Part shown: positions 47,862 through 58,505 of the stretch, one piece after another
How positions within the stretch are numbered: position 1 is the stretch's first letter
Layout of the letters: each line of letters begins with the position of its first letter
Assembly (NCBI GenBank): GCA_963733035.1
Contig: CAVTBU010000007.1
Span: 608,001 to 672,000, forward strand
Direction: 5' to 3'
Length of the DNA: 64,000 bases
Source: Pirellulales bacterium
GTDB lineage: Bacteria > Planctomycetota > Planctomycetia > Pirellulales > PALSA-1355
Made by a program: the position numbers and the translations under genes
The notes under the pieces: model-generated
What the model was told of the DNA's origin: nothing
The model's input: only the letters and a program-made list of their open reading frames with translations
The model's database searches: none

Positions 47862-48629
47862 ATGCATCCGCTGTTCGACCTTTCGGGACGTGTTGCACTG
47901 GTAACTGGTGGCAGTAAGGGGCTTGGTAAGGCGATGGCCCGTGTGTTTGTCGAAGCGGGCGCCGACGTCGTGATTTCGAGCCGGCACGAAGACGAGCTCA
48001 AAAAAACACAGGCGGAAATTCAAGATGGTACCAAGGCAAAAGTCGTGTACGTCGTCGCCGATATGACCAATCGCGATCAGGTGAAGGGGCTTGCCGAACG
48101 GACCTTGGCCGAGATGGGCCGCGTCGACATTCTGGTTAACAATGCGGGCAGCAACGTGCCTCAAGCAATCGATCAAATTACCGACGAAGCTTGGGATCGG
48201 ATTGTCGAGCTTAATCTCACCTCATGTATGTTGCTTACCCGGGCGCTGGTGCCGCAAATGAAAGCGCGAAAATGGGGCCGCGTAATCCACATCTCGTCGA
48301 TCATGGGCCTGGCCTCGAAGGACGCCCGCAACTCGTACTCGGCCACCAAGAGCGCGTTGTTGGGGCTAGCCCGCGCCAGCGCACTCGACCTCGGCGCATT
48401 CAACATCACGGTCAATTGCATTGCCCCGGGACCATTTCTTACCGACCTGCCTGGGTCACTGCTGTCCCCCGAACAGAAGAAGGCGCTGGCCGCACGCACG
48501 GCGCTGGAACGGTGGGGCGACCCGCGGGAACTGGCCGGTCCCGCTTTGCTGCTGGCAAGTGAGGCAGGCAGCTACATTACCGGAGAAGTTTTGGTGGTCG
48601 ACGGCGGCTCTCTGGCCAAGACGTTCTAG
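47862..48629 (+). CDS. SDR family oxidoreductase (FabG-like)
   Basis: TGGSKGLG, NNAG, YSATK and NCIAPG. Confidence 0.95.
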   Translation: MHPLFDLSGRVALVTGGSKGLGKAMARVFVEAGADVVISSRHEDELKKTQAEIQDGTKAKVVYVVADMTNRDQVKGLAERTLAEMGRVDILVNNAGSNVPQAIDQITDEAWDRIVELNLTSCMLLTRALVPQMKARKWGRVIHISSIMGLASKDARNSYSATKSALLGLARASALDLGAFNITVNCIAPGPFLTDLPGSLLSPEQKKALAARTALERWGDPRELAGPALLLASEAGSYITGEVLVVDGGSLAKTF

Positions 48630-48710
48630 AACGCAGTTCAGCTCGCACCGTTTTGAGACGTTGCTGATCCGCAGCGGCCCCCACTTCTGCCGCGTTCGTT
48701 TATGCCAGCG

Positions 48711-48890
48711 CTATTTGCGGAGAATGAGCTTGCCGCTGCGCGTGACGCTTAGCCGGTAAGCCTCGGTGCCGTGGCGAATCACGATCTCGCGATTGCCTTG
48801 CATCAACTCCCGCGAGTTGACTTCACGCCGGCAAGCTCCCGCATCAACGGGGTTTGAAGTGCTGTCAGGTCTGATTGGTTCGGTGTTCAC
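48711..48890 (-). CDS. hemP: Hemin uptake protein HemP/HmuP family
   Basis: SRELMQGNREIVIRHGTEAYRLSVTRSGKLILRK, with the C-terminal KLILxK signature. The GTG start is approximate. Confidence 0.9.
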   Translation of the reverse strand: MNTEPIRPDSTSNPVDAGACRREVNSRELMQGNREIVIRHGTEAYRLSVTRSGKLILRK

Positions 48891-48936
48891 CGCACACCAG
48901 CAGAGTTTAAGTCGCCAGGTTGAGTCATGGCGACTA

Positions 48937-48968
48937 GTTCTACGTTTATTGAGACTATATGTCAATAA
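48937..48968 (-). promoter_or_regulatory. sigma70-type promoter of hemP overlapped by operator 1
   Basis: Minus-strand TTGACA (48965-48960)-N17-TAGAAC. The palindrome TTATTGAGACTATATGTCAATAA (48946-48968) covers the -35 and spacer. Confidence 0.7.
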
Positions 48969-49063
48969 CGTGGCCAGGTGAAGTGAATCGGTCAGCATTT
49001 TTTCAATGTAAACTATAGTAAATAAATGCTTTACGACAACGCACTTTTTTTCCGAGACGCGGA

Positions 49064-49118
49064 TTGACGCCGCGCAAGAAACGGTTAATATGACACTAAT
49101 TGAGACGCGATCTCAATT
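49064..49118 (+). promoter_or_regulatory. sigma70-type promoter of the PEP-CTERM operon with operator 2
   Basis: TTGACG-N16-TAATAT, then the perfect-armed palindrome AATTGAGA-cgcga-TCTCAATT (49098-49118) at the predicted start site. Confidence 0.75.
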
Positions 49119-49336
49119 TCTAGAGCTAGCCCGCCTCCTGGCACGTGCTCGTGCCGATTCGCCCGCCACGCTCAATGGCTTGGGCTGTCTGTCCGTTCTG
49201 CGAGATTTCTCGCCGCGCAGGCCGCCGATTCACCCCGAGTGCCGAGAAAGGAGCAGCTGCTGAATTGTTTTGAGCGTAGGTATTGGGAACCCGTTGTGTT
49301 TGAGATCCGCATTTCACAACCGAGGAAAGAATCGAC

Positions 49337-50038
49337 ATGAACCGCCATTTGTTTTTCACCTTGATTGCAGTTGCCGCCGGTCTGACCGCACATGCGGTGC
49401 ACGGCGCGTCGCTGCTGCCGACCGACGATGGTTTTGGCTATCAGTTTCTAGGCACGACACCGCTTAATGGTTCGCCACCATTTTCCGAGTACCTGCCCGC
49501 TGGTGCGACGACCACGGGTCACAACACCAAGTCGGCATTGAGATTCGACCTGTCCGGCGTGGGACTCGGGGCCGCCGACGTTACGTCGGCCACGCTGAGT
49601 TTATATGTGATCGACACCACGGTTACGGGCTTTGGTGCCAGCCCCGCGCCCGCTAGTCCGATTGTCGTCAGTCTGTTCGCGTTGGGGGCCGGCATCTGGG
49701 ATGAGGCGACACTAACATATGACAACATGCCCTCCACGACCGGTCCCGCCTACGATTCGATTTCCATCGACGGGGTTGATCAGAGCGTGTCATTCGACGT
49801 GACGGCGCTTGTCAAGGATTGGCTCGACGGCAGTGTGGCAAACAATGGGCTGGCACTTGTCGTCGACGTTCCGGTGGGCGCGTTGCCCAATTGGGTGTAT
49901 GCCGTGTTCAGTTCTTCCGAGTCTCAGACTTCACCTGAGCTTACCGTCGTACCCGAACCGGCAAGCGCGTTGATTGCGTTTCTTGCCGTCCCGGCGCTCG
50001 TGTGGTTTGGCCGTTGCCGAATCGAAAGTCGCAAGTAG
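49337..50038 (+). CDS. PEP-CTERM surface protein with DNRLRE-like domain
   Basis: Signal peptide; LRFDLS, SATLSLY, WDEATLTY and FDVTALVKDW..NNGL; VPEP followed by a TM helix and basic tail. Confidence 0.9.
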   Translation: MNRHLFFTLIAVAAGLTAHAVHGASLLPTDDGFGYQFLGTTPLNGSPPFSEYLPAGATTTGHNTKSALRFDLSGVGLGAADVTSATLSLYVIDTTVTGFGASPAPASPIVVSLFALGAGIWDEATLTYDNMPSTTGPAYDSISIDGVDQSVSFDVTALVKDWLDGSVANNGLALVVDVPVGALPNWVYAVFSSSESQTSPELTVVPEPASALIAFLAVPALVWFGRCRIESRK

Positions 50039-50055
50039 ACGAAAAATCTCCCACC

Positions 50056-50094
50056 AGGCGGCGAGCCGGCGTGCCCCTTCGGCGGCCCGCCGCC
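50056..50094 (+). other. GC-rich stem-loop between the PEP-CTERM and DUF1559 genes
   Basis: Imperfect inverted repeat GGCGGCGAGCCG...CGGCCCGCCGCC with no U-tract. Confidence 0.5.
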
Positions 50095-50128
50095 AGCGTG
50101 TTGATTCAATTCGCTGACGAAGGCGCGA

Positions 50129-51076
50129 ATGAGGAACAGAATGGTTCGGTCACGCTTAATGCTCTCGGCCCGTCGCGCCGGCTTCTCGCTCGTGGAGTTA
50201 CTGGTCGTCATTGCGATCATCGGCGTGCTGGTGGCAATCATGTTGCCAGCCATCCAAGCCGCGCGAGAGGCTGCCCGCAGTGCTTCCTGTCGGAATAACC
50301 TGCGACAAATTAGCACCGCCATCCACCTGTATCACGACACTTGCCGTCATTTGCCCCCCGCACGCATCGACCAGGGCACGGTTGGTGCCGGGACCAGTAC
50401 GTTTTACATTATTCTTCCCTTCTTGGAGGAAGGAAACTTAGCCGACGGCTACGACAAATCGGCCGATTATCGCGACGGCGATAATCTGAAAGTTTCTAGC
50501 ACGATTGTCTCTCCGTACCTCTGTCCCTCAATGGTGCTGCCGCGTGACGTGCCCGACCCGGACCCGGCCTGCGCGGAGAAAGGTGCCCCGGGAAGCTATG
50601 CCGTATCGACGAGTTCGGACGTTTGCTTCATCCAACTGAACCTGATTCCAAAGCACAACGGCGCAATCGTCCACCCGCGATTTGGCCGGACGTCGATTGC
50701 CAAGATTTCCGCAGGCGACGGCTCTTCGAAGACGTTCATGGTTGGTGAAATGGACTATGGCCTGACGGACTACTATTGGACCACCTGTCATTCCGCGAAT
50801 TCCGTCCGCGGGGGCGCTATGCGCTGGGCCGTGGGCTATGCCGGAGTTACCTGGGGGTCAACGGTCGGTCCGATCAACAGCGCGACCGTCGGTGCGATAA
50901 AGTACGGGTTTTACAATGTTGGTTACGAGGCCTTCCGCAGCGATCACGCAGGTGGCGTGAACTTCGCCTTTGTTGACGGCAGCGTCCGCTTCATCAGCGA
51001 CGAGATTGATCCAAACCTGTACAAAGCCCTGGCGACTCGCGAAGGTGGAGAAATGATCGACAACTCGGCCTACTGA
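50129..51076 (+). CDS. DUF1559 prepilin-type protein with H-X9-DG C-terminus
   Basis: GFSLVELLVVIAIIG..PAIQAAREAAR..C.NNL and FRSDHAGGVNFAFVDGSV. Confidence 0.95.
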   Translation: MRNRMVRSRLMLSARRAGFSLVELLVVIAIIGVLVAIMLPAIQAAREAARSASCRNNLRQISTAIHLYHDTCRHLPPARIDQGTVGAGTSTFYIILPFLEEGNLADGYDKSADYRDGDNLKVSSTIVSPYLCPSMVLPRDVPDPDPACAEKGAPGSYAVSTSSDVCFIQLNLIPKHNGAIVHPRFGRTSIAKISAGDGSSKTFMVGEMDYGLTDYYWTTCHSANSVRGGAMRWAVGYAGVTWGSTVGPINSATVGAIKYGFYNVGYEAFRSDHAGGVNFAFVDGSVRFISDEIDPNLYKALATREGGEMIDNSAY

Positions 51077-51191
51077 ACGACGCGCCGTCCGATTCGCTGA
51101 AATTCCAACAACAACCGATTGCCGACGACGGATCGCCGGCCCAACAATTTGATAGTGATGCCGTCCGTTTCGCTTTGAAAGGAAACCAGCA

Positions 51192-52549
51192 ATGCTTCGC
51201 AATGTATGCTTGGGCCTCGTTTGTGCCGCCGCGCTCGGCACGCCCGCTTGGGCGCACTTTATTTGGCTTGACTTGAGGCCGAGTGTCGGTGGAAAGGGCC
51301 AGGCGAGACTCTATTTTTCCGAGGAGCCCGCTCCCGGCGAGGCCGACTTGATCGGCAAGGCCGCCAAGGCTCAGGTCTGGCTCCGTAAAGCCGACGGAAC
51401 CACTGCGGAATTAAAACTCGATTCCTCGACAGAAGATGAAGCCGTGTTGGTGGCCGAATGTGCATGCGACGGTGCCAGCCTGGAAGGTGTTTGGGATTAT
51501 GGTGTTTACTCGCGCGGACCGGTGGCAGGGCCGCTGCTGCAGTACTATGCGAAGGGGCTCACCGGAGATTGGGTGAAACACCCCAGTTTGTCCCACTCCA
51601 AAAAATTGAAACTCGACATTGTTCCTTCGCTTCAAGATCGGAAGCTATCCATTCAGGTGCTTTACGATGGCGAGTCGATCAAGGATTGCGACGTACTGTT
51701 CGTAGACCCCACCGGCCAGCAGCACGAGTTGACCACCGACGACCAGGGACGGGCGGAGGTCGAAGTCACGCCCGGTCAATGGGCCGTGCGTACCGCGAAG
51801 ATCGATGCCGACAACAGCGGCGAGCGCGACGGCAAGAAGTTCAGCCAAACCTGGCACTTTGCGACACTCACCGTTGACGTTCCCAGCCGTACACCAGCCG
51901 AAGAACAGGCCGTTGAGTCTGTCTCCGCCATCAACGCTTTGGTGCGGGCACGTAAACACCGAGCGGTCTGGCAGGACTTCCCCGGTTTCAAGGCCGACCT
52001 GACTGTTCTCTCGGACGAGAAGGTCATCAAGGGTACGATGGAGATCGATCGCGATGGTGTGGTGACACTCGATATGCCAAAGTCGAACATTGCCGACTGG
52101 GTGGAGGAACAGCTCAACTCAATGGTTCAGCACCGCATGCCGGACGGCGAAGTTTCTGAGGGCAACGTGACTTGGGCCCAAGAGGAAGGCGTGCATCCAC
52201 TGGGACGCAAGATCGATTTGGGCGATCCGAGACTGCAGAGCACTACCGCATCAAAGACGACGTCATCATGGAAGTGAACCGTTCGGCGGGTCCGACGATG
52301 CGGTTCACGATCAGCGTGTTGGAGATCGAGCGGAATCCGGAAGGGAAGTATCTTCCCCGTTCCTTTACCATGAATTTCTTCGATTCCAAGACCGGCGAAC
52401 TGCAGACGAGCCTTGGCTACCTAAATGCCTGGCAGCGGGTCGACGGCTTTGATTTACCTCGAACGATTGTCGAAGTCGACGCCCATCGGGGAGGCGCGAG
52501 CACCAGGCAAATTACCTTCAGCAACTGCCGACTACTCTCAGCCAGGTAG
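51192..52549 (+). CDS. Exported DUF4198-like + DUF3386-like fusion protein; apparent missing base at about 52241
   Basis: Signal peptide then HFIWL; LDIVP, VLYDG and TDDQG (DUF4198-like); AVWQDFPGFKADL, and after the frameshift YRIKDDVIMEVNR...GKYLP (DUF3386-like). Confidence 0.75.
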
Positions 52550-52589
52550 AGGCCACTGGGAAAGCTTCGCGGCTTCCGCGGGTGGAGCA

Positions 52590-53412
52590 TCACTTTCCGC
52601 TCGTGGTGGCCGCACCAGAAAGGTTGCGCGAGGCAATCATTTTCAGCACGCGCCACGGGCATCAAACGCTTGAGTCGCCAGAAGAACGTGGCCTCGCGCG
52701 GCACCGTGACGTACAGTTGCTTGCGATCGACGGCCTGGAGAATCTTCTGCGCCACGTGTTCGGCCGTGCATTTCGCGTCGGCCATCAGCTTGGTGGCGAC
52801 CTCGCGTTGTGCGTCTCCCTGAAAGCGGCCACTCTTGACAATGCTCGTGGGAAAGAACGAAGGGCAGACACCAGTCACGCCGACATGATGTGGCAACAAC
52901 TCGCCGTAAAGCGTTTCCGAGAGCGAGAGCACGCCGGCCTTGGTGACGTTGTAGGGCGCCATGCTGGGGGCCGATACGATCGCGGCCATCGACGCGATGT
53001 TCACGATGTGGGCGCCGCGCGGATTCGCCTTCAGCCATTCGACCATCGTGTGGCAGCCGTAGATCACACCCCACAGGTTGATATTGACGATCCATTGCCA
53101 GTCTTCCAGCGGAAGTTTGCCCACTTCGCCGCCCACACCGACTCCGGCGTTGTTCACCAGCAGGTCAAGCTGCGGCCAATCGGCTTGCAGCCGGTCGCGC
53201 AACGCTTCCCATTGTTCGACTTTTGTCACGTCCAAGTGTTCGACGCGCCCGTCTCCGCCCGCGGCTCGAACGAGCTTCAGGGTTTCTTCGCCGCCCGCGT
53301 CGTTGATATCGGCAACGGCGATGTGCCAACCGCGCTGGGCGAGCGCGACGGAAAGCGCGCGGCCCAATCCGCTGCCGGCTCCGCTGATCAATGCATACCT
53401 GGTCTGGCTCAT
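52590..53412 (-). CDS. SDR family oxidoreductase; apparent extra base at about 52658
   Basis: SGAGSGLG, NNAGV, NIAS and YNVTK. The corrected end reads MPWRVLKMIASRNLSGAATTSGK*. Confidence 0.92.
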
Positions 53413-53606
53413 CCTGGCAATCGTCCCGCGTTGGGTGGTGTGTGGGCGCCGCGGGCCAGTCGACTGCGACCGTTCCGCCACCGCGGTATTTGCAGATACG
53501 CGCATCGTTGGCCCGTGAGGTGCCCCGAGTGTAACGACAATGGACGTCCCGGCGAAAGAGGCGCCCGTGTCATTGCGGCTGGCGGGCGAAGGTGCAAGTC
53601 CGAATG

Positions 53607-54443
53607 CTACGTCGCAAGGGGGCTGTCCGGCGGCGATTTCCCGGCCTGGTGGAGCTGCCACAACAGCTCGGCGGTTTGAAACGGCTTGGAAATCACGCTG
53701 GCGACTCCCGCCGCACAAGCGGCACGCACATCGTCCGGACGCGGAAAGCTCGTGATTGCCAGGATCGGTGTCCCTGGCGATTGTTCTCGTATGCGACCGA
53801 TTCGTTCGTCATCCTGTAGCGCGGCGGCGTGCGTATCCCACAGTATGGCGTGGAATCGTATCGAGGGGGCGGGAGCGGCAGCTCCGGCGACGAACGTCTG
53901 GTAACCGGCGCGGCGGCAGACTTCGCAAAGGGCACGGCTGGCGGCCGAAGTCGGAGCCCGAACGAGAATCGCGCCGGATTGATCTACGTTTCCCAACGAA
54001 AGCGAATCACCCGCCAAGAGCTGTTCTTCCGGGGTTGCCGTAAGAGGCTGCGACCAACTTGGACGGCGACCGTCCAGGGAGGCTTCGAGCTCGATGGCCA
54101 TGCGCGAGGGCCACCGGTGCCAGTAGATTGCCGGACAACCCGAGGGTGGCCGCCCGCTTCGCGATTGGCCCTCGCACCAGCTTCCCGAGAGCCGGAGCAG
54201 GCGAGCCAAGGGAGCGGCCGCGCGGAGCGTGGCGACCGCCGCTTCACTCCAGACGCCGGGCCGCCTCTCGCAGAGGACAATGAGCGAGGGTGCGTATGCC
54301 ACGGCGTCGCCGAGCACGTTAAGAGCGCGCGACAAATCGGCGACTCGGCGCGCGCCCGGCACCCAGGCGGTTAGCTCCGTGCCGTCATAACCGCTGGTCG
54401 AGCGGGGCAGTTCGCCAACGAGCAGGACGTCGTGTGGATCCAT
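53607..54443 (-). CDS. Protein with divergent receiver-like domain(s)
   Basis: C-terminal AILWD...PILAITSF..GVASVISKPF receiver pattern; the N-terminal half has a similar but more degenerate alpha/beta pattern. Confidence 0.65.
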   Translation of the reverse strand: MDPHDVLLVGELPRSTSGYDGTELTAWVPGARRVADLSRALNVLGDAVAYAPSLIVLCERRPGVWSEAAVATLRAAAPLARLLRLSGSWCEGQSRSGRPPSGCPAIYWHRWPSRMAIELEASLDGRRPSWSQPLTATPEEQLLAGDSLSLGNVDQSGAILVRAPTSAASRALCEVCRRAGYQTFVAGAAAPAPSIRFHAILWDTHAAALQDDERIGRIREQSPGTPILAITSFPRPDDVRAACAAGVASVISKPFQTAELLWQLHQAGKSPPDSPLAT

Positions 54444-54633: not shown

Positions 54634-55860
54634 CTATTCCGGAAGGTCAACGACGTCGTCCGCTCTCATGGTCGACAACCGCTGGTAGGTGAGCATGTCG
54701 ATGTCGTCGCCCAAGAAGTGCACGGAGCCGTCGGCAAACAGGAAGTTGCCTCCGCCACTATGATCGCTCCTGAAGTTGGCGGTAGAGAACTGCCACATGC
54801 CGGTCGGATTTGACTTGGAGTAGCTTGAATTCAATATTTTCGGGCCTAGGGTCATGGTTGGCGAACCAGGACCAGCCGGCGGCAATATGCCATTCGCCGG
54901 TGGTATCGAAATAAAATCTTCCTGGCCCGCTCCGTTATTGGGGCTCCAGCACTGGGTCACCGGATTTTTGTTCATCGGTTCGAGCGTGCAGGCATAGATC
55001 CCCGTCTCGAAGAGGGCAATGGCACCGGTAGCCACTTGCGTAAACGCGACCTGCCCGCAAATCCAGCCGGCCCAGGGCTTGTAAGGAAGTCCATTGTTCG
55101 ATTTGGTCGTCGGAACGTAGCGATTGTTGCTAGGCGCATTCAGGCTCGTGATCGACCAGGCGGAACCGTCGGCTCCCTCACCCATGGCAATCGTGTGCGA
55201 CGTGCCGTCGGTGATCTTGCGGATCGGCGCGCCCCAGTTCACGTCAAAAATGCCACGGTAGTACTTCGTTTGGTTTCCGGGAGCTCTGCACCACGTGTCG
55301 GAAATACCCTTGCAGAGGATGTAGTTTGTCGTGCCGTACCCCTGGTTCTTTAGCTGATAGCTGGGATTGCCGCTTTTATTAACCGCGATCAGAAATACCG
55401 TCGACAATTGTATGTCTTCATGGGGATTTTCGCCGTCGGCGCTCGGACAATTAAACACGGGGATCACCGTGGCCGGAACCGTGAAGTAGTAGTAACCGCC
55501 CGACGATTTCGTAACATCCCAAACCCCGGTCTGATGCTGCCAGTCGGTCGTCTGGTTGTAAAGACTTTTGAGAGCTGCTTCCTCGAAGTAAGGCAGCATC
55601 ATCGCATAGAAGGACGAATACGTTTGATTCTGATCGAAGGTGGTACCAGTGTCGATGGCGCCAGGCGGGAACGTTTTCAGCGCGTCGTGATAGGTTTGCA
55701 TCGCGATGCCGAACTGCTTGATGTTGTTCGTGCACTTCGACCGCCGAGCGGCCTCTCGCGCGGCCTGAATGGCCGGCAGCAACAGCGCCACGAGCACGCC
55801 GATGATGGCGATCACCACCAGCAGCTCCACCAGGGTAAATCCACGTTTTCTGCCCGTCAT
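54634..55860 (-). CDS. DUF1559 prepilin-type protein with H-X9-DG C-terminus
   Basis: GFTLVELLVVIAIIGVLVALLLPAIQAAREAARR, ITDGTSHT and FRSDHSGGGNFLFADGSV. Confidence 0.96.
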   Translation of the reverse strand: MTGRKRGFTLVELLVVIAIIGVLVALLLPAIQAAREAARRSKCTNNIKQFGIAMQTYHDALKTFPPGAIDTGTTFDQNQTYSSFYAMMLPYFEEAALKSLYNQTTDWQHQTGVWDVTKSSGGYYYFTVPATVIPVFNCPSADGENPHEDIQLSTVFLIAVNKSGNPSYQLKNQGYGTTNYILCKGISDTWCRAPGNQTKYYRGIFDVNWGAPIRKITDGTSHTIAMGEGADGSAWSITSLNAPSNNRYVPTTKSNNGLPYKPWAGWICGQVAFTQVATGAIALFETGIYACTLEPMNKNPVTQCWSPNNGAGQEDFISIPPANGILPPAGPGSPTMTLGPKILNSSYSKSNPTGMWQFSTANFRSDHSGGGNFLFADGSVHFLGDDIDMLTYQRLSTMRADDVVDLPE

Positions 55861-55973
55861 AACCTGCACCCCCTTGTCATGGATGGGACACCACGCGTCG
55901 ATCGCAGCCGTGGTCACTAAAAGATAATAAGAGAATTGCCGGCGCCGACACTCCTGGCCAGCGCCCGAACCCT

Positions 55974-56813: not shown

Positions 56814-57145
56814 GGAAACAATTTCGCCGCTGATGAGGGTGTCGTGCAGTCGCCAGCTCCGGCTGGCATCCTGTCGAGCATGATTCGCAACCAATGAACA
56901 ATCCACCCATACTCTAACCTTTGTCGTGGCGGCCGCCATCAAAAACCGGACGTTCTTGCCAGGTGATCCGGACCGTGCACGGCAATCGGGGGTATCACCG
57001 CTGGGCAGGCCCGAGGTTGTACCCGAAGCGCGCCGACTTCGCGGCTCCCCGTTCCTCGGCCGCGTGGCACTCCACTGCGAGAGTCACTCCAATTTCGAGG
57101 TCGTAGTGAGCGCGAACGTGTCCGGACGTCGCTGCTTTTTTCCGT

Positions 57146-57650
57146 CTTTGTGTCCTTGGTGCCTTGGTGGTTGATTCTTCTGTCGCAGTTGCGAAACCGG
57201 GGATTCACCACGAAGGCACGAAGACACAAAGGAGCGGAGAACAGGAAGCTTGGCTTGCTTGGTGAACTCCGCGGCCGATTCGGTTGCTTGTTGGAGATCG
57301 AGGGACGCGCGACTGGCTTTTGCTTTTGGTGCTTTGTGTTCTTGGTGCCTTTGTGGTTGATTCTTGCGTTGTCGTTCCGAAACCGGGGATTCACCACAAA
57401 GGCACGAAGACACAAAGGAGTGGAGAACAGGAGGCATGGCTTGGTCGGTGAACTCCGCGGCCGATTCGGTTGCTTGTTGAAGGCCCGACAAGGCCGTGCT
57501 TGGTACCGTTCCGAAATTGGTCCTTATCACTGGCATTGAACTCGACTGGTTTTTGCTTTTCCTTCTTTGTGTTCTTGGTGCCTTGGTGGTTGATTCTTCT
57601 TTCGTAGAGTCCAAGCAAGGGATTCGCCACCAAGACACGAAGGCACAAAG
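57146..57650. repeat. Array of three long inverted-repeat units with related linkers
   Basis: Left arms CTTTGTGTYCTTGGTGCCTTKGTGGT at 57146, 57332 and 57565; right arms RCCACVAAGRCACGAAGRCACAAAG at 57207, 57393 and 57626; every loop is 35 nt. Confidence 0.92.
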
Positions 57651-58505
57651 TGAGGAGGCAAGGGATACGGGCGCGGAGCAAGCGCGCAGCGGCGCGCTGG
57701 CGAAGCAATAAAAATGGTGCCGCTGGCCCGGTTGAGCCGGGATTGGACTCTGAAACGCTTGTTAAGGGTTAGTTGACCACTCCTCGACCATCGACCGAGA
57801 ACAGCGGCACGCGGAACGGCCACCCGTTTTTGCTCAGGCGGTCGTTTCCAACCGTACGCCGTTCCCGCCGATCGGGACCCGCCTGAGACTTGGGCAAAGC
57901 TCCCGCGGCACGACCTCCCACACCGAGCGCTATCTGCAGCTAGCGCGAGTGATCGGAGGAGCATGGGTCGAGGACATAAGCGGCCGCGAAACGTTGTTCA
58001 CGGAAATCACGTGCCGCTTGCGCCGGGGCTCAGACAAGCCGATCCTACGCCCCGGGATTAACGTCCCCACTTGGCCACGCAGGCCACCGGACTGCTCGCG
58101 ATTGTGCACCAGGTGCTGGCCCGAATTCAAGCGAGCAATTTCCGCGGACGAAAATCAGGCGGCAATTTCCAGATCTCGAGGTGGGACACAGACCAACAGC
58201 AGATCGAAGCAAGCAAGGGCGCAATGGAGGCGACAACCCTGGGTATTTCCTGCGGATCCACTCCAGAACGAGGTGCGCATCGCCGCTATCCAGTCCACCT
58301 TGCGGCCGAAGACGATCTTGGAACGGAATGCCCCCCGGGATGATCTCTATCGCGGTCCGGGGCAGGTGAGAAACCAGTCGAACCAAGCGATGTGCAGGGG
58401 CAATTCAACGCGTGCAAGCGTCATGCGTGTCGAGCAACAGTGATTGGTCTGCTAGCGTGCTTCGTTCCAGAACATCCGCGCTCCGCCCTCCTAGATAAAC
58501 CCGCC

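Follow-up and report, generated by a model that had tools for sequence, protein, structure and literature searches.

The closest described relatives of the system reported here are the hemP/hmuP/chuP loci of proteobacteria, such as chuPRSTUV of Chromobacterium and hmuP-shmR of Ensifer, which we describe from the accessible parts of one preprint (bioRxiv 10.1101/2022.02.10.479982). In these loci an iron operator sits in the promoter, and the HemP-family proteins HmuP and ChuP are reported to be post-transcriptional activators of iron receptor genes through a GCCAGC-rich element (HPRE) that is paired in the leader of the target operon. Here we analyze a counterpart in a Pirellulales bacterium, located in a 64,000-nucleotide (nt) stretch that we call the window (positions 608,001–672,000 of contig C7, CAVTBU010000007.1, in the 6.65 Mb, 92% complete assembly GCA_963733035.1). 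The regulatory layer is of the known kind: a HemP-family gene, an operator-like box in the promoter and, class-wide, paired GCCAGC leader repeats. Its target is not. Unlike the Chromobacterium and Ensifer loci, hemP here faces an operon for a prepilin-type DUF1559 protein and not a TonB receptor, there is no ABC transporter or heme-degrading gene, and hemP is divergent from the operon instead of being its first gene. From comparative sequence evidence, we are confident that this module is under iron-type regulation through the box.

The protein families involved have been described separately. DUF1559 is among the most expanded unexplained families of Planctomycetes, with at least 41 genes per genome in Planctomycetales (PMC8567305). 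As far as the available text of PMC8567305 and PMC2754498 goes, these proteins have the same N_methyl, SBP_bac_10 and H-X9-DG arrangement as ours and are often followed by a signal-peptide gene, and no regulator or iron role is assigned to any member. What distinguishes our genes from DUF1559 at large is that two orthologous clades are marked by an iron box and linkage to hemP. Type IV pilins and the pseudopilins of type II secretion systems resemble the protein in their prepilin motif with Glu5 and long N-terminal helix, and alignments reach residue ~277; unlike pilins, the DUF1559 protein of the first clade (clade A) has a large unmatched insert, its fold matches are weak, and assembly into a fiber is predicted at most. 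Among DUF4198 proteins, Neisseria Zcp (PMC12663993) and a NikK-like Ideonella protein (PMC12537917) share with ours a whole-domain fold (Z 18–20) and an N-terminal His after the signal peptide. The Caulobacter DUF4198 genes CC2193 and CC3061 are among the most iron-repressed Fur targets in the available part of PMC3751524, the control that we propose here. Unlike these known proteins, ours has Glu/Asp23 and not His as its second candidate ligand (a position match inferred, not superposed), carries a fused second domain (LolA-like DUF3386 or Kelch), and is linked to DUF1559 and not to TonB/ECF transporters.

We found no description of the module in the literature, with subscription papers and supplements lying outside the search. 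Searches on DUF3386 and on the planctomycete Fur regulon with iron returned nothing, those on DUF1559 with iron or pilin gave no relevant passage, and a 2025 review (PMC12673574) has no DUF1559, prepilin or TonB passage.

Locus layout

The locus comprises the following features.

48711–48890, minus strand: hemP/HmuP-family small regulator (PF10636), 59 aa from GTG at 48890
48948–48966: iron box 1 (ATTGAGACTATATGTCAAT), 29.4 bits with a matrix trained without the window
49064–49091, plus strand: sigma-70-like promoter TTGACG-16-TAATAT directly before box 2, from a consensus scan alone
49099–49117: iron box 2 (ATTGAGACGCGATCTCAAT), at the predicted operon start, 25.7 bits
49123–49173, plus strand: two conserved leader blocks, GAGCTAGCCCGCC and TGCCGATTCGCCCGCCACGCTC, predicted HemP target
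49337–50038, plus strand: secreted DNRLRE/CBM96-domain protein with a PEP-CTERM-like tail, variable accessory
50129–51076, plus strand: DUF1559 (SBP_bac_10) prepilin-type protein of clade A, core part
51192–52549, plus strand: exported DUF4198 and LolA-like DUF3386 fusion, mature His1 at 51255, Glu23

Open reading frames (ORFs) and profiles bore out the layout and orientation given in the initial annotation, in which hemP diverges from PEP-CTERM/DNRLRE, DUF1559 and DUF4198–DUF3386 genes, the same palindrome lies in each divergent promoter, and the locus lacks a TonB receptor or ABC transporter (none was seen between 40 and 62 kb by inspection, with 13 ORFs profile-scanned). The hemP product matched PF10636 at 51.8 bits against a cut-off of 25. 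Its open frame runs out to 48998; because the ATG there sits upstream of box 1, the GTG at 48890 is probably the start. The 49337–50038 protein carries a DNRLRE domain (NF033679, 88 bits against a cut-off of 34; CBM96, 48 against 26), and by eye its C-terminus reads VPEP, a hydrophobic stretch and a basic tail. None of the PEP-CTERM profiles scored above cut-off on it (NF038129, E 0.036); the genome encodes two exosortases. The 50129–51076 protein has N_methyl, DUF1559 (PF07596) and H-X9-DG domains.

In the fusion, a signal peptide is followed by H-F-I-W, the mature N-terminus expected from the initial annotation, whose HemP and DUF3386 calls were upheld by profile. Its DUF4198 call fell short by profile (PF10670, 32.5 bits against a cut-off of 34), while most homologues carry a precomputed PF10670 match, and was recovered by fold (below). 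A 1-nt frameshift near 52241, absent from the initial annotation, breaks the fusion's reading frame, and DUF3386 is above cut-off in both halves. This frameshift is likely an assembly error because a 151-nt contig from a strain almost identical to this one carries an additional base there (one contig, depth 2) and ~100 near-full-length fused DUF4198–DUF3386 homologues exist. The check drew on small shares of each of four DNA runs from one study; a look-up of sequencing runs listed no RNA run among the holders. Named close homologues belong to Pirellulales or Planctomycetia, and Rfam gave no match within 48600–52700.

An iron box shared with feoB and storage genes

Both divergent promoters carry boxes resembling ATTGAGAC-N3-GTCTCAAT. 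The pattern matched four times in the window (two sites, both strands) against 0.22 expected, and none of 100 shuffles reached four. Box 1 overlaps the predicted -10 element of the hemP promoter (a promoter-like site at 48982–48954, minus strand, by consensus scan). Box 2 is kept in four close relatives, and the TTGAC of the promoter before it in the three aligned sequences covering that position. With a matrix trained on 87 sites drawn from 58 loci, window left out, we found five sites of at least 20 bits in this genome, compared with zero and one in two shuffles: two here, one before feoA–feoB, one before a DUF1559 gene on contig C2, and one unexplained. A ferritin gene of this genome has a weak site (15.4 bits).

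We then turned to the class, where hemP was found in 167 of 301 genomes. Loci of ~14 kb were taken around 80 of the listed hemP matches (spread, on long contigs) and pooled with one further locus (L040) and the window, giving 82 loci; these genomes are related. A search seeded with the window consensus (up to four mismatches) placed the box upstream of hemP in 59 of the 82. Three shuffles gave 1–3 such loci, and upstream regions of other genes had it in 10 of 356 cases. On data outside the matrix training, the box preceded feoB (within 1.5 kb upstream) in 27 of 30 genomes; it was found downstream in 0/30, in control regions in 12/437, and before znuA/mntA-like genes in 0/30. A scan of five complete genomes with a strict pattern (30 loci cut, 21 distinct ones examined, several without a recognizable gene) gave matches near bfd, feoA/feoB, a ferritin-like gene and ApbE, and also near YceI, cytochrome c peroxidase, DUF1559, Kelch and DUF4198 genes.

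The sharing of the box with iron transport and storage genes (feoAB, bfd, ferritin-like), and not with Zn/Mn ABC transport genes, marks it as an iron operator, as the initial annotation had anticipated. Where two boxes lie close together, they are offset by 6 nt in 30 of 32 pairs, a figure to which the motif's own periodicity contributes; a 6-nt stagger is typical of Fur operators. Since the genome encodes two Fur-family genes, among them a Fur orthologue at C7:410376, and one DtxR-family gene, we only infer Fur as the binder. The DtxR-family gene leaves room for a reading in which DtxR/MntR or a Zn/Ni regulator recognizes the box and the module handles Mn, Ni or Zn, and the solved DUF4198 proteins do bind Zn or Ni (accessible parts of PMC12663993 and PMC12537917). 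The distribution at feoB versus znuA/mntA-like genes, the Fur-like stagger (to the extent that it exceeds the periodicity) and the two Fur-family genes argue the other way, and we consider that reading very improbable.

Two orthologous DUF1559 clades carry the box

Of 34 DUF1559-like ORFs in this genome, two carry the box, exactly the clade A and clade B paralogues. When we scored 75 DUF1559-cluster proteins against these 34 candidates, the best match was one of the two paralogues for 60, a count that includes this genome's own two genes. A quick tree of 89 rows (proteins without a prepilin motif or shorter than 220 aa excluded) placed the paralogues in clades of 41 rows (SH-aLRT 92) and 16 rows (100); clade labels came from best BLAST matches to this genome, making the tree's shuffle test partly circular.

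A clade A profile search of genomes was made to remove the hemP bias. In the phylum sample, all 11 strong matches from other genomes were boxed, eight of them without hemP in the locus, and neither of two weak matches was; this search did not find clade A in the other 141 phylum-sample genomes, whose listed members come from other classes. The order sample added 21 new loci, of which 13 were boxed within 1.5 kb; in seven of the eight misses the box stood before the first gene of a longer operon, while the remaining locus runs into a contig edge. Overall, clade A genes found by orthology alone had the box in 31 of 32 cases (11/11 and 20/21). The suggestion of the initial annotation that the locus would give a regulatory handle on DUF1559 thus holds for two specific clades. 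In each genome, the finding narrows the family to one or two orthologous DUF1559 genes, together with the condition predicted to induce them.

Clade B conserves His232, Glu234 and Glu273 in 16/16 members and Asp237 in 13/16; this well-conserved His-x-Glu-Trp-x-Asp ... Glu set may make it a better metal-binding candidate than clade A. The structure model of clade A (predicted local distance difference test, pLDDT, 95.5) had fold matches of pilin type alone, weak (Z up to 4.7); the search returned no Foldseek match at E ≤ 0.001 and none at Z ≥ 5, which does not show a new fold. A complex prediction for the clade A head with the DUF4198 domain (score 0.01, mark 0.32) was counted neither way.

The clade B gene of this genome stands alone (C2:87166–88250) under the strongest box in the genome (31.6 bits), with a short leader without GCCAGC.

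Composition of the module

Across the 82 loci, a clade A or B DUF1559 gene lies within ~7 kb of hemP in 51, and it is divergent from hemP in 38 of 41 cases for clade A and 14 of 15 for clade B. A DUF4198 domain is present in 34 loci, 28 of these with clade A. Its commoner partner is Kelch, found in 31 loci versus nine for DUF3386. A PEP-CTERM gene from a recurring family accompanies clade A in at least 15 of 39 loci, and the slot is filled by at least four separate PEP-CTERM clusters. Judged from gene content, the core is the box, hemP, DUF1559-A/B and DUF4198; the PEP-CTERM protein and DUF3386 appear to be interchangeable extras because they vary across the loci. Of the synteny that the initial annotation had proposed, hemP, DUF1559 and DUF4198 are thus conserved across Planctomycetia, DUF3386 is not core, and the exosortase-anchored protein, which it had counted as a constituent, belongs to several separate families outside the core. 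A PepSY-TM gene is found in just three loci. A protein-based genome scan returned one locus.

TonB or a TonB receptor lies beside hemP in seven of the 82 loci (L042, L049, L053, L057, L061, L065 and L067). These TonB-linked loci have no iron box near hemP.

Leader repeats and HemP

The two leader blocks after box 2 are nearly invariant in five aligned loci (the window and four relatives). They include GCCCGCC, a variant of a class-wide HPRE-like repeat, GCCAGCC. Taking the leader as the 130 nt after the last box, we found GCCAGCC in the sense strand of 28 of 63 leaders, usually paired, and in the antisense strand of 0/63; it occurred in 2.9% of random windows and in 3/28 feo leaders, an imperfect control because 130 nt there often reaches coding sequence. 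By analogy to HmuP and ChuP, HemP would act on the paired leader repeats. The analysis thereby supplies, besides a class-wide iron box, a candidate HemP RNA target.

Two further leader elements were seen. At 49246–49290 of the window lies a third block (AAGGAG ... CTRCTGA ... GAGCGT), conserved among five relatives and placed ahead of the real ribosome-binding site; it had no Rfam match and, by inspection, no conserved small ORF. In many loci of family f18 and one f22 genome, the box is followed by another bipartite leader, CTCCGCYA ... CGTYCGCAAYGC, and an RR motif is present in many HemP proteins of these genomes. This may point to a changed RNA–protein code, an association confounded by kinship, and we do not claim co-variation of HemP sequence and leader type for the same reason.

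The DUF4198 domain as a predicted metal-binding part

Fold work used an intact same-genus orthologue of the fusion. Its DUF4198 domain matched Zcp at Z 20.1 (root-mean-square deviation 2.7 over 198 aligned residues) and the Ni-bound Ideonella protein (NikK) at Z 18.1. The match to Zcp confirms the DUF4198 assignment despite the sub-cut-off profile score. The DUF3386 part is LolA-like (Z 9.7, root-mean-square deviation 4.8, 151 residues). The DUF4198 His1 is present in all 34 sequences compared and Glu/Asp23 in 33 of them. In the Ideonella protein, His1 and His18 are the Ni ligands (PMC12537917). An acidic second ligand, as predicted here, might suit iron.

Iron import and heme

Of the families that we looked for in this genome, FeoAB was the sole iron importer to turn up. 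A FecCD permease and HemS had no match in this 92% complete assembly, and the single TonB receptor that it encodes is linked to YfiR and lacks the box. The locus itself has no TonB-dependent heme or siderophore receptor as a HemP target. In a 61-genome class sample, FeoB was present in 56 genomes, TonB receptors in 17 and FecCD in 12. The module-rich families f17 and f18 had TonB receptors in one of 14 genomes each, and f18 had FecCD in none of 14. Gemmata genomes have been reported without an iron acquisition pathway (PMC6851166), and no TonB receptor was found in 44 of the 61 sampled genomes.

These inventories bear on heme, which the initial annotation had named as a possible substrate. A heme-acquisition reading, with the DUF1559 or PEP-CTERM protein as hemophore, draws on the classical link of HemP/HmuP to heme uptake and on heme binding by ChuP (accessible parts of bioRxiv 10.1101/2022.02.10.479982), and clade A does keep Met, Tyr and His residues. 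Heme is nonetheless not supported, because FecCD and HemS are missing and the only TonB receptor is YfiR-linked and boxless. The scarcity of FecCD in the class, above all in f18 where the module is common, points the same way, and no hemophore fold appeared among the structural matches. We regard heme acquisition as improbable.

Proposed role

An iron-scavenging role is likely because the box is common to genes of the ferrous-iron importer and because hemP and a predicted metal-binding protein adjoin. We lean towards a specific form of it, in which an envelope module under feoAB's iron box captures iron for import by FeoAB, repressed by Fur and activated by HemP. When iron is present, Fe-Fur would occupy both boxes, whose sequences are seen, and block both divergent promoters. 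When it is absent, HemP would permit operon expression from the paired GCC(A/C)GCC leader repeats, as HmuP and ChuP do on theirs. Prepilin peptidase would then cut the DUF1559 protein, which is predicted to stay in the inner membrane or to become part of a pilus-like fiber, while His1 and Glu/Asp23 of the DUF4198 domain would bind metal in the periplasm. The variable PEP-CTERM protein and the partner domain, which is LolA-like DUF3386 in this locus and mostly a Kelch propeller elsewhere, may bind an iron-bearing ligand or surface. Finally, iron would be handed to FeoAB.

A different outcome of the same regulation is an envelope response to iron starvation without iron import, in which DUF4198 acts as a buffer or chaperone for metal in the periplasm, a role proposed for Zcp, and the surface is remodeled by the pilin-like and PEP-CTERM proteins, for adhesion to minerals or to siderophore-producing neighbors. 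The regulatory evidence is identical for both readings. Zcp would fit such a response, since its three His coordinate Zn, soaking gave no Fe density, and it buffers Zn while being dispensable for zinc uptake (PMC12663993), as would the varied carbohydrate-binding-like domains in the PEP-CTERM slot and the lack of a transporter in the module core. The known HemP/HmuP targets, however, are iron-uptake receptors, and the operon fills precisely that slot with its box and HPRE-like leader; the planctomycete hemP genes that adjoin TonB or its receptors also speak for uptake. We hold an envelope response without import to be possible though doubtful.

Several observations weigh against capture for FeoAB. 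At the cut-off used, clade A occurs in 40 of the 81 order-sample genomes, so about half are without it. The clade conserves Met118 and Tyr220 and offers few clade-specific ligand candidates, both characterized DUF4198 proteins bind Zn or Ni, and no outer-membrane channel or reductase is part of the module core in the 82 loci. The window leader has GCCCGCC instead of the published GCCAGC. Module parts can also separate: in G217, a genome of the same genus, the DUF4198 fusion is the gene directly opposite hemP, and two other boxed loci hold clade A. HemP is not essential, because in family f16, where it is mostly missing (2/73), one genome (G015:C1:5441000–5450000) keeps a boxed DUF1559 gene, neither clearly A nor B, before a DUF4198–Kelch gene. 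The leader of that locus has no GCCAGC, a single case that fits HemP–leader coupling. Lastly, kinship among the genomes inflates all counts, which are not independent events.

Beyond capture for FeoAB in general, we suggest more tentatively, as a conjecture we would not expect to hold in full, a TonB-independent, pilus-based route in Planctomycetia. DUF1559-A/B proteins would serve as pilin subunits or tips that reach the surface through a secretin (secretins are present in this genome), bind ferric iron or its complexes and pass it to DUF4198 as a His/Glu carrier and on to FeoAB. If true, DUF1559 would be a family of pilins specialized by substrate, every one having a regulator and partner genes of its own, and the HemP–HPRE switch would extend beyond Proteobacteria to non-receptor targets.

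Neighboring genes and additional observations

The flanking genes (leuB-like and two SDR genes) recur only in the same-genus locus, and we therefore do not count them as module parts. One SDR gene (52417–53718, minus strand) has a frameshift near 52653; this is likely an assembly error as well, since contigs of two runs are without one base there. The assembly is indel-prone.

A second DUF4198–DUF3386 gene (C5:915895–917245) is also frameshifted and has no iron box upstream; the gene adjoining it is presumably cstA-like. We discarded a motif match close to this paralogue (C5:914327) because its position is intragenic and the matrix gives no box in front of the paralogue. The unexplained site at C5:442695 (26.6 bits, with a 6-nt staggered partner) is ~220 nt upstream of a gene starting MCRWIAYLG, which we take to resemble a class II glutamine amidotransferase.

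Within the window, another DUF1559 paralogue (54634–55917, minus strand) lies ~3.5 kb from the clade A gene; it falls outside clades A and B and has no box (4.1 bits). The region 56939–57964 looks non-coding; phrases such as NHQGTKNTK and TTKARRHKG recur in its ORFs, as would be expected if an intergenic element were repeated there several times.

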